From Escherichia coli (GTDB lineage: Bacteria > Pseudomonadota > Gammaproteobacteria > Enterobacterales > Enterobacteriaceae): a DNA stretch of 64,000 nucleotides. This document shows, in pieces, positions 3,378-57,418 of the stretch. Position numbers and translations under genes: made by a program. The first letter of the stretch is position 1. Every line of letters begins with the position of its first letter. The stretch lies in the NCBI RefSeq assembly GCF_003018235.1, contig NZ_CP027437.1; one strand, 5' to 3'. A model generated the notes under the pieces. The model did no database searches, was not told the DNA's origin, and was given only the letters and a program-made list of their open reading frames with translations.

Positions 3378-6074
3378 TTACTGCCAGCCGTAACGACGGC
3401 TATAGAACCCTTTCACCAACTGGGTTAACGTCATATACCCTGCCAGAATCGCAACCAGCCACGGGAAATAGCTTAACGGCAGCGCCTGCAGCTGCAGATA
3501 ACTGGCCAGCGGTGAAAACGGCAATGCGATCCCGACAATCATCACGATCACGGTCATGATCATTAACGGCCACGATGCACAGCTCTGAATAAACGGTACA
3601 CGACGGGTGCGGATCATATGCACAATCAGCGTTTGCGACAGTAAGCCCACCACAAACCAGCCCGACTGGAACAGCGTTTGCGTTTCCGGCGTGTTGGCAT
3701 GGAATACCCACCACATCAGGCAAAACGTCAGAATATCGAAGATCGAGCTGATCGGTCCGAAGAAGATCATAAAGCGCCCCAGATCCGCCGGATTCCAACG
3801 CTGCGGCTTTTGAATTTGCTCATCGTCGACGTTATCAAACGGGATCGCCACCTGTGACACATCGTACAGCAGGTTCTGAATAAGCAAGTGTAACGGCAAC
3901 ATCGGCAGGAAGGGCAAGAAAGCACTCGCCACCAGCACGCTGAACACATTACCGAAGTTAGAGCTCGCCGTCATTTTGATGTATTTCAGCATGTTGGCGA
4001 AAGTGCGACGTCCCTCAATAACCCCCTCTTCCAGCACCATCAGGCTTTTTTCCAGCAGGATGATATCAGCCGCTTCACGGGCAATATCTACCGCGCCGTC
4101 CACAGAAATGCCGATATCCGCAGCACGTAAGGCGGGCGCATCATTTATACCATCGCCCATAAAGCCAACCACATGCCCTTCGCGCTTCAGTAAGGTCACA
4201 ATGCGTTCTTTATGCATCGGCGTCAGGCGAGCAAACAGCGTGGTGCGCTGTGCGAGATTTGCCAGTTCATCGTCAGATAGCGTTTCAATATCACTACCAA
4301 TGACCACCTCTCCCGCGTCCAGCCCCACTTCATGGCACACTTTCGCTGCAACTAACTCACTGTCGCCAGTAAGGATTTTTACGGTAATGCCACTCGCTTT
4401 TAATGCCTTCAGTGCCGGAGCAGTTGTCTCTTTTGGCGGATCAAGGAAAGCAATATATCCTTCGAGGATCAGGTCGGATTCATCCGCTCGCTGGTAATCG
4501 CCTTCACGCGCTGGCAGGTATTTCGTCGCCACCGCAACCACGCGCAGCCCCTGACGATTCAGCGTATCGGTAACCCGCTTAATCTTACGCAGCATGATGT
4601 CATCGAGTGGTACAATCTCGCCATTGTGACGCACCTGCGAACACACATTGAGGATTTCCTGCAATGCACCTTTGCAAACCAGCTGATGGTGCTCGGTATT
4701 TTCTGCCACTACCACCGACATCCGGCGACGCTCGAAATCAAACGGAATCTCATCAATTTTTTGCCAACGGCTGGCCAGCGAGCGCGCTGACTCTTCATCC
4801 GTACGTTCGAGCACCGCGGTATCAAGCAGGTTTTTAAGTCCGGTCTGGTAATGACTGTTCAACCACGCGCTATGCAGCACGCGTTCGCTGGTTTTACCGG
4901 AGATATCGGTATGATTCTCCAGCACAATTTTGTCCTGCGTCAGGGTGCCGGTTTTATCAGTGCACAGAATATCCATTGCGCCAAAGTTCTGAATGGCATC
5001 CAGATGCTTGACGATCACTTTCTGTTTCGACAGCTTTACTGCGCCGCGCGCCAGCGTCGAGGTAACAATCATCGGCAACATTTCTGGCGTTAAGCCTACC
5101 GCGACCGAAAGCGCAAACAGTGCCGCTTCCCACCAGTCACCTTTGGTGTAACCGTTGATAAGCAACACCACCGGAGCCATCACCAGCATAAAGCGAATCA
5201 GCAGCATACTGACGCGGCTGATCCCTTGCTGAAAGGCATTCGGCTCGCTTTCCTGCTCACTAACACGCCCCGCCAGTTGACCAAACCAAGTGTTGGCTCC
5301 TGTAGCAATCACCATTGCTTGTGCCGTGCCGCTCACCACGGTGGTGCCCATAAAACACAGGGTGTCGCACTCCAGCGGATTGCTGTGCTCCGGCTGGCGA
5401 GTGGTTGCAGCTTTTTCTACGGGCAGAGACTCGCCGGTTAACGACGCCTGAGCGACGAACAGATCCCGCGCCTGCAAGATACGTAAATCTGCCGGGATCA
5501 TATCTCCCGCCGCCAGTTTTATAATATCGCCGGGCACCAGCTGGTCGATCGGGATCTCCAGCCAGCCATTTTCGCCTTTGTCGTTAATTACGCGCAGCAC
5601 CGTCGCGGTATTGCTGACCATCGCTTTCAGGGCATCTGCCGCTTTAGTGGAACGTGCTTCCTGAATAAAGTTCAGCAACGTAGAAATAGCGACCATTAGC
5701 GCGATAACACCCGCGGCAAATAAATCTTCCGTGGCGTAAGAAATAGCGCCGAGAATGGTGAGTAAAATATTAAAGGGGTTGCGATAGCAGACCCATAAAT
5801 GAACCCACCACGGCGACGGTTGTTGTGCGGGTAATTTATTTTCACCATGTTGTTCGCGGGCAGATTCCACTTCCGCCTGATTTAATCCTTCCGGATGGGT
5901 GTCGAACGTTTTCCACAATTCTTCTTCGGGCATCACCGCCATTTTCAGGCAATGCGCACTTAAGGACGGCGGGACCGCCGTATTCACTGTCTGCTGCGCG
6001 CCAGGCAATGGATCGCGATGAACCAGACGGGAAGGTAAATGGCGAATGAACCGGGTAAAAATTTCTTTAAACAT
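3378..6074 (-). CDS. mgtA: Mg2+-importing P-type ATPase
   Basis: 898-aa ORF; P-type ATPase motifs DKTGTLT and GDGINDAPAL visible in translation. Confidence 0.95.
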   Translation of the reverse strand: MFKEIFTRFIRHLPSRLVHRDPLPGAQQTVNTAVPPSLSAHCLKMAVMPEEELWKTFDTHPEGLNQAEVESAREQHGENKLPAQQPSPWWVHLWVCYRNPFNILLTILGAISYATEDLFAAGVIALMVAISTLLNFIQEARSTKAADALKAMVSNTATVLRVINDKGENGWLEIPIDQLVPGDIIKLAAGDMIPADLRILQARDLFVAQASLTGESLPVEKAATTRQPEHSNPLECDTLCFMGTTVVSGTAQAMVIATGANTWFGQLAGRVSEQESEPNAFQQGISRVSMLLIRFMLVMAPVVLLINGYTKGDWWEAALFALSVAVGLTPEMLPMIVTSTLARGAVKLSKQKVIVKHLDAIQNFGAMDILCTDKTGTLTQDKIVLENHTDISGKTSERVLHSAWLNSHYQTGLKNLLDTAVLERTDEESARSLASRWQKIDEIPFDFERRRMSVVVAENTEHHQLVCKGALQEILNVCSQVRHNGEIVPLDDIMLRKIKRVTDTLNRQGLRVVAVATKYLPAREGDYQRADESDLILEGYIAFLDPPKETTAPALKALKASGITVKILTGDSELVAAKVCHEVGLDAGEVVIGSDIETLSDDELANLAQRTTLFARLTPMHKERIVTLLKREGHVVGFMGDGINDAPALRAADIGISVDGAVDIAREAADIILLEKSLMVLEEGVIEGRRTFANMLKYIKMTASSNFGNVFSVLVASAFLPFLPMLPLHLLIQNLLYDVSQVAIPFDNVDDEQIQKPQRWNPADLGRFMIFFGPISSIFDILTFCLMWWVFHANTPETQTLFQSGWFVVGLLSQTLIVHMIRTRRVPFIQSCASWPLMIMTVIVMIVGIALPFSPLASYLQLQALPLSYFPWLVAILAGYMTLTQLVKGFYSRRYGWQ

Positions 6075-6340
6075 AAGGAGTCCCTCCGCACTGTCTGAAA
6101 CAGTACAGAAATGTCTTCAGGCGTGGCGAAGCCTTACCTGAAGGTAATAAAGCTGAGCAGGGACGTTAAAACGTCACGGCCTTACGCATCCGGTAACGCC
6201 GTGAAAAGACGGGCTTACCGGAAAAGTTTTAATCTCCGTCGAGGGAGAGGCGTGGGATCAGGTTCCATATAACCTCCGGTAAGTGAAAAAAGCGCCGCAA
6301 ATAATAAGGAGAATCCAATAATATTCGTAGCATCTATGGC
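6075..6340 (-). promoter_or_regulatory. mgtA 5' leader (Mg2+/proline-responsive attenuator region)
   Basis: Long untranslated leader upstream of mgtA containing the mgtL leader ORF; extent approximate. Confidence 0.5.
6215..6268 (-). CDS. mgtL: mgtA leader peptide (17 aa, [17 protein letters not shown])
   Basis: Last 17 codons of the spurious 113-aa ORF 6215..6556; ATG at 6268-6266; proline-rich. Confidence 0.7.
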
Positions 6341-6452
6341 GATATAATACCTGCTGGCAACTAAACCAACGATAAACCAGACTTTACCCATTGCTGAATG
6401 CACGGGTAAAGTTAGGCTCAAATAATTAAACAACACGTTACGGGACAACAGG

Positions 6453-7400
6453 ATGCAAAATCGGCTGACCATCAAAGACATCGCGCGCTTAAGCGGCGTG
6501 GGGAAATCTACGGTTTCCCGGGTGCTGAATAACGAAAGCGGCGTGAGCCAGCGCACGCGCGAGCGTGTTGAAGCAGTGATGAATCAGCATGGATTTTCCC
6601 CTTCCCGCTCTGCGCGCGCTATGCGTGGGCAAAGCGATAAAGTGGTCGCCATCATTGTTACCCGTCTGGATTCGTTGTCAGAAAATCTCGCCGTTCAAAC
6701 CATGCTGCCAGCGTTCTATGAACAAGGTTACGATCCAATCATGATGGAAAGTCAGTTTTCCCCGCAATTAGTTGCCGAACATTTGGGGGTGCTGAAACGG
6801 CGTAATATCGACGGCGTAGTGCTGTTCGGTTTTACCGGCATAACAGAAGAAATGTTAGCCCACTGGCAGTCATCGCTGGTTCTGCTGGCGCGTGACGCAA
6901 AAGGCTTTGCTTCGGTCTGTTATGACGACGAAGGGGCAATCAAGATCCTGATGCAACGGCTGTATGACCAGGGACATCGTAATATCAGTTATCTCGGCGT
7001 GCCGCACAGTGACGTGACGACCGGTAAGCGACGTCACGAAGCCTACCTGGCGTTCTGCAAAGCGCATAAACTGCATCCCGTTGCCGCCCTGCCAGGCCTT
7101 GCTATGAAGCAAGGCTATGAGAACGTAGCAAAAGTGATTACGCCTGAAACTACCGCCTTACTGTGCGCAACCGACACGCTGGCACTTGGTGCAAGTAAAT
7201 ACCTGCAAGAGCAACGCATCGACACCTTGCAACTGGCGAGCGTCGGTAATACGCCGTTAATGAAATTCCTCCATCCGGAGATCGTCACCGTAGATCCTGG
7301 TTACGCCGAAGCTGGACGCCAGGCGGCCTGCCAGTTGATCGCGCAGGTAACCGGGCGCAGCGAACCGCAACAAATCATCATCCCCGCCACCCTGTCCTGA
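6453..7400 (+). CDS. treR: trehalose operon repressor (LacI family)
   Basis: 315-aa ORF; N-terminal HTH IKDIARLSGVGKSTVSRVLN. Confidence 0.9.
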   Translation: MQNRLTIKDIARLSGVGKSTVSRVLNNESGVSQRTRERVEAVMNQHGFSPSRSARAMRGQSDKVVAIIVTRLDSLSENLAVQTMLPAFYEQGYDPIMMESQFSPQLVAEHLGVLKRRNIDGVVLFGFTGITEEMLAHWQSSLVLLARDAKGFASVCYDDEGAIKILMQRLYDQGHRNISYLGVPHSDVTTGKRRHEAYLAFCKAHKLHPVAALPGLAMKQGYENVAKVITPETTALLCATDTLALGASKYLQEQRIDTLQLASVGNTPLMKFLHPEIVTVDPGYAEAGRQAACQLIAQVTGRSEPQQIIIPATLS

Positions 7401-7439
7401 TCGTTTCCTGAACGATAAATTGTGATCTTCGCTGCGTTT

Positions 7440-7453
7440 CGGGAACGTTCCCG
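7440..7453. promoter_or_regulatory. candidate TreR operator (perfect palindrome CGGGAACGTTCCCG)
   Basis: 14-bp perfect palindrome centred on CG, 65 bp upstream of treB; LacI-family operators are typically of this form. Confidence 0.4.
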
Positions 7454-7518
7454 TTTTTAAATTTTTCCGCGCAATATATTCTGCAGCCAACCAAAAATGT
7501 CATCTGCCATGGGGCTTT

Positions 7519-8940
7519 ATGATGAGCAAAATAAACCAAACGGATATCGATCGGTTGATTGAACTGGTCGGCGGGCGCGGCAATATTGCGACGGTGAGCC
7601 ACTGTATTACTCGCCTGCGCTTTGTCCTCAACCAACCGGCCAATGCCAGACCGAAAGAAATTGAGCAACTCCCCATGGTGAAAGGCTGTTTCACCAATGC
7701 CGGGCAATTTCAGGTGGTGATTGGCACCAACGTGGGTGATTACTATCAAGCACTGATTGCGTCAACCGGACAGGCGCAGGTTGATAAAGAGCAGGTAAAA
7801 AAAGCCGCACGGCAGAATATGAAATGGCATGAGCAGTTGATCTCTCATTTCGCGGAGATCTTCTTCCCGTTGCTGCCCGCGCTGATTAGCGGCGGTTTGA
7901 TCCTCGGGTTTCGCAATGTGATCGGCGATTTGCCCATGAGCAACGGTCAAACGCTGGCGCAAATGTACCCTTCCCTGCAAACGATCTACGATTTTCTGTG
8001 GTTGATCGGTGAAGCGATCTTCTTCTACCTGCCGGTCGGGATTTGCTGGTCAGCGGTGAAAAAAATGGGCGGCACGCCGATCCTTGGTATCGTGCTTGGC
8101 GTAACGCTGGTTTCTCCACAGCTGATGAACGCTTATCTGCTCGGGCAGCAGCTGCCAGAAGTGTGGGACTTTGGCATGTTCAGCATCGCCAAAGTGGGCT
8201 ATCAGGCGCAGGTGATCCCGGCACTGTTAGCCGGGCTGGCGCTGGGCGTTATTGAAACTCGCCTTAAACGCATCGTGCCGGATTACCTCTATCTGGTGGT
8301 GGTGCCCGTCTGTTCGCTGATCCTCGCGGTGTTCCTCGCCCATGCGCTGATTGGTCCGTTTGGTCGCATGATTGGCGATGGCGTTGCCTTTGCGGTACGT
8401 CACCTGATGACCGGCAGCTTTGCTCCGATTGGCGCGGCATTGTTTGGCTTCCTGTACGCCCCACTGGTGATCACCGGCGTACACCAGACCACGCTTGCTA
8501 TTGATTTGCAGATGATTCAAAGCATGGGTGGCACGCCAGTGTGGCCGCTGATTGCACTGTCGAATATCGCTCAGGGCTCCGCCGTGATAGGTATTATCAT
8601 TTCCAGCCGCAAGCACAATGAACGCGAGATCTCCGTGCCTGCCGCTATCTCCGCCTGGCTTGGAGTCACTGAGCCTGCTATGTACGGCATCAACCTGAAA
8701 TATCGCTTCCCGATGCTGTGCGCGATGATTGGTTCTGGTCTGGCAGGATTGCTATGCGGCCTGAACGGCGTTATGGCGAATGGCATCGGCGTAGGCGGCC
8801 TGCCGGGAATTCTCTCGATTCAACCGAGCTACTGGCAGGTGTTTGCGCTGGCAATGGCTATCGCCATCATCATCCCGATTGTACTCACCTCGTTTATCTA
8901 TCAGCGGAAATACCGCCTGGGCACGCTGGACATTGTTTAA
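7519..8940 (+). CDS. treB: PTS trehalose-specific EIIBC component
   Basis: 473-aa ORF; EIIB cysteine motif VSHCITRLR near the N-terminus; polytopic membrane domain. Confidence 0.9.
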   Translation: MMSKINQTDIDRLIELVGGRGNIATVSHCITRLRFVLNQPANARPKEIEQLPMVKGCFTNAGQFQVVIGTNVGDYYQALIASTGQAQVDKEQVKKAARQNMKWHEQLISHFAEIFFPLLPALISGGLILGFRNVIGDLPMSNGQTLAQMYPSLQTIYDFLWLIGEAIFFYLPVGICWSAVKKMGGTPILGIVLGVTLVSPQLMNAYLLGQQLPEVWDFGMFSIAKVGYQAQVIPALLAGLALGVIETRLKRIVPDYLYLVVVPVCSLILAVFLAHALIGPFGRMIGDGVAFAVRHLMTGSFAPIGAALFGFLYAPLVITGVHQTTLAIDLQMIQSMGGTPVWPLIALSNIAQGSAVIGIIISSRKHNEREISVPAAISAWLGVTEPAMYGINLKYRFPMLCAMIGSGLAGLLCGLNGVMANGIGVGGLPGILSIQPSYWQVFALAMAIAIIIPIVLTSFIYQRKYRLGTLDIV

Positions 8941-8989
8941 TTTTCTTCGGGGCGCAATTGCGCCCCCTCGCATTTGCAGGAATAACGTA

Positions 8990-10645
8990 ATGACTCATCT
9001 TCCCCACTGGTGGCAAAACGGCGTTATCTACCAGATTTATCCAAAAAGTTTTCAGGACACCACGGGTAGCGGCACCGGCGATTTACGTGGCGTTATCCAA
9101 CGCCTGGATTATCTGCATAAACTGGGCGTTGATGCCATCTGGCTAACCCCCTTTTATGTCTCTCCCCAGGTCGATAACGGTTACGACGTAGCGAATTATA
9201 CGGCGATTGATCCCACCTATGGCACGCTGGACGATTTTGACGAACTGGTGACACAGGCAAAATCGCGCGGGATTCGTATCATTCTCGATATGGTGTTTAA
9301 CCATACCTCTACCCAACATGCCTGGTTTCGCGAGGCGCTGAACAAAGCAAGCCCTTACCGCCAGTTTTATATCTGGCGCGATGGAGAACCAGAAACACCA
9401 CCGAACAACTGGCGTTCAAAATTTGGCGGTAGTGCGTGGCGCTGGCATGCGGAAAGCGAACAGTACTATTTGCATCTCTTTGCACCAGAACAGGCGGATC
9501 TCAACTGGGAGAATCCAGCGGTACGCGCAGAGCTGAAAAAAGTCTGTGAGTTCTGGGCCGATCGTGGGGTCGACGGGTTGCGCCTGGATGTGGTGAATCT
9601 GATCTCCAAAGATCCGCGTTACCCTGAAGACCAGGATGGCGACGGGCGTCGCTTCTACACCGACGGGCCACGAGCACACGAGTTTTTGCACGAGATGAAC
9701 CGCGATGTGTTTACGCCACGCGGGTTAATGACCGTAGGTGAAATGTCCTCCACCAGCCTTGAGCATTGCCAGCGATACGCGGCTCTGACAGGCAGTGAAT
9801 TGTCGATGACCTTTAATTTTCATCACCTGAAGGTCGATTATCCCGGTGGTGAGAAATGGACGCTGGCTAAACCTGACTTTGTGGCGTTGAAAACATTGTT
9901 CCGCCACTGGCAACAAGGAATGCACAACGTGGCATGGAATGCCTTGTTCTGGTGTAACCACGATCAGCCGCGCATTGTTTCTCGCTTTGGTGATGAAGGT
10001 GAATACCGCGTGCCTGCGGCAAAAATGCTGGCGATGGTGCTGCATGGCATGCAGGGAACGCCGTATATCTACCAGGGCGAAGAGATTGGCATGACCAACC
10101 CGCATTTCACGCGCATTACTGACTATCGCGACGTGGAGAGCCTCAATATGTTTGCCGAGCTGCGCAACGATGGGCGTGATGCCGACGAGTTATTGGCAAT
10201 CCTCGCCAGTAAATCCCGTGACAACAGTCGCACACCCATGCAATGGAGCAACGACGATAATGCCGGGTTTACGGCTGGCGAACCGTGGATTGGCCTGGGC
10301 GATAACTATCAACAAATCAACGTAGAAGCCGCGCTGGCCGATGAGTCCTCGGTGTTTTACACCTACCAAAAGTTAATCGCACTGCGTAAGCAAGAAGCCG
10401 TTCTGACATGGGGCGATTACCAGGATCTGCTGCCAAACAGCCCTGTATTGTGGTGCTATCGCCGTGAATGGAAGGGGCAAACCTTACTGGTCATTGCCAA
10501 CCTTAGCCGTGAGACCCAACCCTGGCAGCCAGGGAAAATGCTCGGCAACTGGCAGCTTGTGATGCATAACTACGAAGAAGCCTCACCACAACCCTGTGCC
10601 ATGACTTTACGGCCTTTTGAGGCTGTCTGGTGGTTACAGAAGTAA
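8990..10645 (+). CDS. treC: trehalose-6-phosphate hydrolase (GH13)
   Basis: 551-aa product from ATG 8990 (MTHLPHWWQNGVIYQIYPKSF); ORF-track start 8843 is an upstream extension overlapping treB. Confidence 0.9.
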   Translation: MTHLPHWWQNGVIYQIYPKSFQDTTGSGTGDLRGVIQRLDYLHKLGVDAIWLTPFYVSPQVDNGYDVANYTAIDPTYGTLDDFDELVTQAKSRGIRIILDMVFNHTSTQHAWFREALNKASPYRQFYIWRDGEPETPPNNWRSKFGGSAWRWHAESEQYYLHLFAPEQADLNWENPAVRAELKKVCEFWADRGVDGLRLDVVNLISKDPRYPEDQDGDGRRFYTDGPRAHEFLHEMNRDVFTPRGLMTVGEMSSTSLEHCQRYAALTGSELSMTFNFHHLKVDYPGGEKWTLAKPDFVALKTLFRHWQQGMHNVAWNALFWCNHDQPRIVSRFGDEGEYRVPAAKMLAMVLHGMQGTPYIYQGEEIGMTNPHFTRITDYRDVESLNMFAELRNDGRDADELLAILASKSRDNSRTPMQWSNDDNAGFTAGEPWIGLGDNYQQINVEAALADESSVFYTYQKLIALRKQEAVLTWGDYQDLLPNSPVLWCYRREWKGQTLLVIANLSRETQPWQPGKMLGNWQLVMHNYEEASPQPCAMTLRPFEAVWWLQK

Positions 10646-57237: not shown

Positions 57238-57418
57238 CTGTCTCTCCTTTTTGTCTGGTATGACATGAAGAAATCCTTAGCACAAGTTTCTGCTGGCGGT
57301 ATTAGTTCATAATGTTGAGATGTGGGTTACGCTTTCGTCACGTTTTCATTCGAAAATCGCGTACCAGGTAACAATTCGGGAACATTCCCCCAAAGTTAAA
57401 TTAATAAGGCACTACACT

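Follow-up and report, generated by a model that had tools for sequence, protein, structure and literature searches.

The perfect palindrome CGGGAACGTTCCCG in the treR–treB spacer of Escherichia coli is, with high confidence, the operator of the repressor TreR, which would occlude the CRP-activated treBC promoter from this site until released by trehalose-6-phosphate. It is almost certainly the TreR binding site that has already been described; the switch is of the textbook type and the feature is a known one. It is noted that the basis of this reading is split: the sequence, the position, the conservation and the co-occurrence with treR come from the present analysis, and the binding of TreR and the identity of the inducer come from the literature.

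The site lies in a 64-kb window, i.e., the whole stretch of E. coli DNA that was analysed, in which the gene order is mgtA–treR–treB–treC–nrdD, with mgtA and mgtL upstream of treR on the opposite strand and nrdD downstream of treC (Table 1). The stop codon TGA of treR occupies 7398–7400. In the comparison with NCBIfam, the treR product gives 590.7 bits with TIGR02405 (cutoff 357), the treB product 973.8 bits with NF008236 and the treC product 881.7 bits with TIGR02403, the scores for TreR, PTS-IIBC-Tre and TreC all being far above the equivalog cut-offs, and the RefSeq annotation, which was taken from near-identical E. coli genomes, agrees on the three genes. A 2.6-kb stretch of the locus is matched in 5425 of 5426 complete E. 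coli genomes, and the 125-bp treR–treB intergenic stretch has at least 99% identity in 5171 of 5417 E. coli genomes and 100% identity in the O16:H48 (K-12-type) strains. From this identity of the spacer together with the gene context it follows that the sequence is the well-studied treBC control region of E. coli.

Two further observations on the locus are recorded here. In the HB101 record (match H23), similarity to the treR–treB spacer begins only at window position 7435, which falls between CRP site and operator, and the spacer is matched at another place in the record as well. This pattern suggests that the treB promoter of HB101 has undergone a rearrangement or an insertion. The Rfam scan of positions 6000–9100 returned the Mg2+ riboswitch of the mgtA leader alone, a known element that served as the positive control, and the treR–treB spacer was without any match.

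Table 1. Features of the treR–treBC region, numbered from the first base of the window
Feature	Position	Strand	Description	Basis
Mg2+ riboswitch, mgtA leader	6168–6283	−	mgtL annotated nearby	Rfam RF01056, 125.8 bits
treR	6453–7400	+	LacI-family trehalose operon repressor, 315 aa	ORF listing, NCBIfam, RefSeq
Inverted repeat ATCGTT-N5-AACGAT	7400–7416		First base is the last base of the treR stop codon	
Predicted CRP site (22-mer frame)	7418–7439		Left half TGTGA at 7421–7425; centre 7428.5, at about −61.5	
Predicted TreR operator CGGGAACGTTCCCG	7440–7453		Core GGGAACGTTCCC at 7441–7452; centre 7446.5	
Putative weak −35, TTTTTA	7454–7459	+	Abuts the operator; 17 bp upstream of the −10	Position of the −10
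Putative −10, TATTCT	7477–7482	+	Family pattern TAnnCT	
Putative transcription start	7489–7490	+	Family pattern CA, A at 7490	Position of the −10 and conserved CAG
treB	7519–8940	+	PTS trehalose transporter subunit IIBC	ORF listing, NCBIfam, RefSeq
treC	8990–10645	+	Trehalose-6-phosphate hydrolase, second gene of the regulated operon	NCBIfam, RefSeq

The palindrome and its conservation

The initial annotation had pointed out a perfect 14-bp palindrome centred on CG, and this is present at 7440–7453. The palindrome is even (CGGGAAC followed by GTTCCCG, with the central CG at 7446/7447), its centre is 72 bp upstream of the treB ATG (7519), and the exact 14-mer occurs once only in the window. By itself a 14-bp palindrome is without statistical significance in the window, where six perfect palindromes of at least 14 bp are observed and 4.9 ± 2.1 are expected from Markov-1 simulations; the expected count in the 118-bp treR–treB intergenic region is about 0.009. 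Since the length alone is unremarkable, the significance must rest on the position and the conservation.

The conservation was determined with one genome per species, which gave 80 treB loci from more than 25 genera of the Enterobacteriaceae with TreB 86–97% identical; the upstream regions, anchored on the palindrome motif, align without a gap from about 7416 to about 7491. The core GGGAACGTTCCC is invariant in all 80 loci, which have distinct upstream regions, and the neighbouring columns have less than 0.5 bit. At the two outer positions, 7440 is C in 78 loci, while 71 loci have A at 7453, 8 have G and one has T, the outer pair in most genera thus being C…A (71/80). What all loci share is therefore the 12-bp core; E. 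coli and a few others have the perfect 14-mer. The surroundings of the core are also constant: TGTGATC (7421–7427) is invariant in 80/80 loci, exactly 20 bp upstream of the core, TTT (7437–7439) is kept in 79/80 and TTTT (7454–7457) in 73–80/80, and the −10 pattern TAnnCT stands 24–29 bp downstream of the operator with a fixed, gapless spacing in the 80 loci. Salmonella has the same operator/CRP/promoter module. The distance from the operator centre to the treB start is 61–149 bp in these loci, with one at 203 bp, and the Enterobacter loci that have a 1.8-kb insertion between treR and the promoter still keep the operator. With the core unchanged in all 80 loci and the flanks diverged, a chance origin of the palindrome is ruled out.

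The Enterobacter insertion (L040, 637–2440; also in L032 and L074) is an observation in its own right: about 1.8 kb between treR and the treB promoter, it holds an Hcp-like gene (type VI secretion tube) and, on the opposite strand, a gene of 230 aa, and its breakpoint is just upstream of the CRP site, leaving the promoter module intact.

The motif was also followed to more distant repressors. The search for TreR homologues gave only relatives of at least 85% identity, and the distant orthologues were obtained from a cluster-representative search. On four contigs, TreR proteins of 49, 47, 45 and 41% identity adjoin treB (L084–L087), and the spacers hold TGGGAACGTTCCCA, GGGAACGTTCCC, two near-copies and TGGGAACGTTCCCA, respectively, all four contigs thus having palindromes of the TGGGAACGTTCCCA type between treR and treB. 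In L085 and L086, TGTGA is exactly 20 bp upstream of the operator core, as in E. coli, and L085 has a near-consensus CRP site, TGTGA-TATTGA-TCTCA, at the same distance to the operator. A LacI paralogue of 43% identity that is away from treB (L089) has another palindrome, TGTAAACGTTTACA, and is without the TreR motif. Judged by these contigs, the motif travels with treR–treB. As expected of a TreR(1) operator, treB orthologues have the motif conserved in their upstream regions, in company with treR. The proposal of the initial annotation that the palindrome is the TreR operator is therefore supported by its place between treR and treB, by the core being kept in 80/80 loci and in Salmonella, and by its recurrence with TreR proteins of 41–49% identity.

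Of the remaining contigs, L088 was discarded for being too short and L083 for being a C-to-T converted assembly. The latter (Logan SRR18107613) looks like a treR–treB locus of the Klebsiella/Raoultella type in which every C is read as T, for example TTTTGGGAATGTTTTT where TTTCGGGAACGTTCCC is expected; the reads assembled here had apparently been bisulfite-converted, and the contig's 'protein' had become a cluster representative at 52% identity.

It could still be argued that the palindrome arose in the spacer by chance, or that it serves some other DNA-binding protein. In the window, perfect 14-bp palindromes occur as often as random sequence would give, and the motif is not unique to TreR, the identical consensus TGGGAACGTTCCCA having been predicted for CebR2 of Streptomyces scabiei, an unrelated LacI-family regulator (PMC9953190). 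However, besides the invariance across the 80 loci and the co-occurrence with treR–treB down to 41% TreR identity, the treR–treBC locus has no further match with up to one mismatch to the 14-mer or up to two mismatches to the 12-bp core. Chance, or another protein, is thus extremely improbable as the explanation.

Far from the locus, the window contains GGGAACATTCCC at 57378–57389, in the intergenic region between yjfP (−) and bsmA (+), with one mismatch to the TreR core and the centre CA, not CG; about 0.14 one-mismatch core matches are expected per window, and GGGAACATTCCC may be due to chance.

Another possibility to be considered is that the palindrome acts mainly in RNA, as the stem-loop of a Rho-independent terminator of treR (CGGGA-ACGU-UCCCG and then UUUUU), with the binding of TreR being secondary. 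A terminator scan indeed flags 7440–7453 together with TTTTTAAATT, where T5 follows the palindrome; the palindrome is 40 bp downstream of the treR stop with the conserved TTTT behind it, and its RNA fold has −7.0 kcal/mol. However, the stem has 5 pairs only, with z of −1.6 and 17 of 200 shuffles as good, and 72 of the 80 loci have C·A or C·U in place of the outer C-G pair, so that 4 pairs and a 4-nt loop remain. No compensatory or wobble change in the palindrome is found among the 80 loci, the bases of the supposed loop being invariant, and invariance even at the centre is the pattern expected for the recognition of DNA bases by a protein. Moreover, the operator is kept where treR is 1.8 kb off behind convergent genes (Enterobacter), no T-run follows the site in the distant L086 and L087, and the conserved T-run coincides with the putative −35. 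Thus, despite the pattern match, the palindrome has neither the stable GC-rich stem nor the covariation of a Rho-independent terminator, and a terminator as its main function is very improbable; a minor, secondary role as treR terminator may exist in E. coli.

The opposite pattern is seen in the treB–treC spacer, where an 18-bp perfect palindrome, GGGGCGCAATTGCGCCCC, at 8949–8966 forms a GC-rich hairpin of −17.7 kcal/mol. Of 81 loci, 77 have an equivalent hairpin, in which the loop varies and the stem shows compensatory changes (variants GGGGCCA/TGGCCCC and GGGGTGC/GCACCCC), and such a variable loop with compensation means selection on the RNA structure, opposite to what is found for the TreR palindrome. 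The treB–treC hairpin is probably an intra-operon RNA element, for instance a partial terminator or a stabiliser of the mRNA, by which the treB:treC ratio is set.

Promoter architecture and the mode of repression

In a class I CRP-dependent promoter, TGTGA-N6-TCACA is located near −61.5, near −71.5 or helical turns further upstream. The suggestion in the initial annotation that the TGTGA upstream of the palindrome could belong to a CRP site gains weight from the invariance of TGTGATC at a fixed spacing and from TGTGA-N6-TCTCA in L085. The left half, TGTGA, is perfect and invariant, and the right half, CTGCG, is poor, with 1/5 matches in E. coli and 4/5 in L085. Within the 22-mer it is also seen that TCGC (7429–7432) is kept in 67–78 of the 80 loci despite its mismatch to the CRP consensus.

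The −10, the −35 and the start are assigned from conservation and not from mapped 5′ ends. Among the 80 loci the −10 positions T7477, A7478, C7481 and T7482 are kept in 77, 80, 66 and 80, respectively, and each position of CAG (7489–7491) is kept in 59. A scan for a consensus sigma-70 promoter found none in the treB promoter region, and this fits an activator-dependent promoter. With the start near 7490, the TreR operator would be centred at about −43.5 and the CRP site at about −61.5, the latter placement depending on the putative start at 7490.

Based on this geometry, we infer that TreR represses by a steric mechanism. One TreR dimer would bind two GGGAAC half-sites that face each other across the central CG. 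The operator would be wedged between the class-I-type CRP site (about −61.5) and the weak −35 starting at the next base, and the dimer would also contact a few extra base pairs on each side, covering the DNA from the CRP site to the −35. With the operator at this position of a −61.5-type CRP promoter, bound TreR would take the DNA that is needed by the alpha C-terminal domain and sigma region 4 of RNA polymerase, keeping treBC off by occlusion or anti-activation. After TreB has imported trehalose and given rise to trehalose-6-phosphate, the affinity of TreR for the operator would be lowered and the promoter would become free, with the freed promoter still requiring cAMP-CRP.

Horlacher and Boos (1997, J Biol Chem 272:13026) reportedly found TreR to bind tightly to a palindrome lying just upstream of the treB −35, and in E. 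coli K-12 the same work reportedly showed the binding of TreR to the operator and the lowering of the affinity by trehalose-6-phosphate. This reported geometry is the same as the geometry found at 7440–7453. Consistent with the proposed switch, treBC is repressed by TreR when trehalose-6-phosphate is lacking and activated when glucose is lacking (PMC3938415). According to a passage of bioRxiv 10.1101/2025.04.02.646877, which cites Horlacher & Boos 1997, trehalose stabilises TreR on operator DNA. In the papers covered by the search on the treB promoter and its footprint, no printed TreR operator was found, and a text search for the operator sequence had the paper on CebR2 of Streptomyces (PMC9953190) as its sole match.

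The junction of the CRP 22-mer and the TreR operator has zero gap and is free of indels from E. coli to lineages with 45–47% TreR identity. As an alternative to simple occlusion of the polymerase by TreR, this rigid junction could reflect an interaction between TreR and CRP on the DNA, giving CytR-like anti-activation or mutual exclusion, with the 14-mer and T5 of E. coli also acting as a weak treR terminator, i.e., with roles in both DNA and RNA; to this combined proposal we give a small chance. Anti-activation by CytR with CRP operates at deoP2 and related promoters. As with CytR at deoP2, the present case has a LacI-family repressor at a CRP-dependent promoter, with the repressor site adjoining the CRP site upstream of the −35. 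By contrast, CytR requires protein contact with CRP and binds loosely spaced half-sites poorly when alone, whereas the TreR palindrome is perfect and contiguous. TreR is reported to bind tightly on its own, and we know of no contact between TreR and CRP.

The upstream inverted repeat and a second operator

The initial annotation had also noted an inverted repeat at 7401–7415 that shares GAACG with the palindrome. Like the TGTGA at 7421–7425, this repeat is present (TCGTT-TCCTG-AACGA), and it extends to 7400–7416, overlapping the treR stop; it is probably irrelevant to TreR, the repeat being limited to Escherichia/Citrobacter, GAACG being lost within these, and the half-sites being everted. Its fold has −5.0 kcal/mol, with z of −3.8 on a 25-nt stretch and −1.3 in a 34-nt context. 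The repeat is absent in Salmonella. Within Escherichia/Citrobacter, 2 of its 6 pairs have compensatory changes (T:A becoming C:G at one, and C:G becoming T:A once at another), and GAACG has become GAGCG in most Citrobacter. As GAACG is lost through compensatory changes, the repeat is not a base-specific half-site for TreR; it is probably a small hairpin restricted to this clade and not a TreR operator. A conserved hairpin behind the treR stop as a terminator, an idea taken from Leclercia and Silvania, was rejected, z being below −2 in 2 of 76 loci; in these 76 loci, where the treR stop and TGTGATC are separated by 17–32 nt, this interval shows neither a conserved hairpin (mean z −0.14) nor a conserved sequence.

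These results bear on the proposal that the inverted repeat at 7400–7416, or CTGATCGTTTCC at 7397–7408, is an auxiliary TreR operator which forms a loop around CRP together with the main one. According to PMC3505978, RegulonDB has two TreR operator sites at treBC, and a TreR chimera acts as if looping. CTGATCGTTTCC matches the operator at 8 of 12 positions, with a central CG and 5/6 in the right half-site, and it is 44 bp from the main operator, while in the distant locus L086 two TreR-type sites stand at a distance of 46 bp. On the other hand, a match with up to four mismatches is expected by chance 0.24–0.48 times per 200 bp, and the search for a second TreR site in 6000–7600, including the treR promoter region, gave 4-mismatch matches only, at chance frequency, with no convincing counterpart of the second RegulonDB site. 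As for the repeat, 5 bp separate its arms and the TreR-like half-sites in them face away from each other, making it unusable by a LacI-type dimer, its sequence is not conserved beyond Escherichia/Citrobacter, and the compensatory substitutions that destroy GAACG point to a hairpin and not to a base-specific protein site. In addition, the TreR regulon of the Enterobacteriales in RegPrecise has 8 sites in 8 genomes, one each (PMC4052901 supplement), and the second site of L086 is downstream of the first, not upstream. An auxiliary operator in the upstream region is therefore unlikely.

In L086 itself (2744–2896; TreR 45% identical), the two TreR-type sites are TGGGAACGATTCCA and TGGGAACGTTACCA, the first of which is located 20 bp after TGTGA; this locus may represent a two-operator variant of the switch.

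Relation to known systems and significance

The palindrome can be compared with described systems. Compared with the TreR operator of E. coli K-12 (RegulonDB; RegPrecise TreR(1)), the locus is the same and the sequence is the same as judged by the O16:H48 spacer identity; the LacI-family repressor, trehalose-6-phosphate as inducer and the dependence on CRP are shared, and there is no substantive difference. LacI-family operators are, as a rule, even palindromes with a central CG, typically 30–140 bp from the start codon (PMC4052901). The site has the even palindrome, the central CG, the position and the cognate treR at the locus, as operators of the LacI/GalR family have. Placement 30–140 bp upstream beside the regulator gene, an even palindrome with a central CG and binding of a dimer are shared with lacO, the PurR box, the RbsR site and the CcpA cre (Ravcheev et al. 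2014, PMC4052901), whereas the GGGAAC half-site sets TreR apart from generic LacI/GalR operators. The position also differs from that of lacO1, which at +11 blocks the polymerase downstream of the start, while the TreR site at about −43.5 would lie between the activator and the −35.

The predicted CebR2 operator (PMC9953190) has an identical 14-nt consensus, and CebR2 is likewise a LacI-family regulator of an uptake cluster for disaccharides or oligosaccharides. It differs from TreR in the phylum, the orthologous group, the effector (cello-oligosaccharides) and the transporter (ABC, versus the PTS of tre). The likeness of the two sites is probably due to a shared recognition code of the LacI family and not to a common descent of the sites.

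Finally, we note that work of the 1990s had already characterised the TreR/treBC switch of E. coli, that RegulonDB and RegPrecise contain it, and that there is little new here as a discovery. The initial annotation, which had picked the operator and the CRP half-site from the raw sequence, is validated. What is added is descriptive, namely that the part of the operator common to all loci is a 12-bp core, its outer pair being C…A in most genera, and that the spacing of CRP site, TreR operator and −10 is free of indels across the Enterobacteriaceae. This comparative description of the promoter could be of use in designing trehalose-responsive synthetic promoters or TreR-based biosensors.
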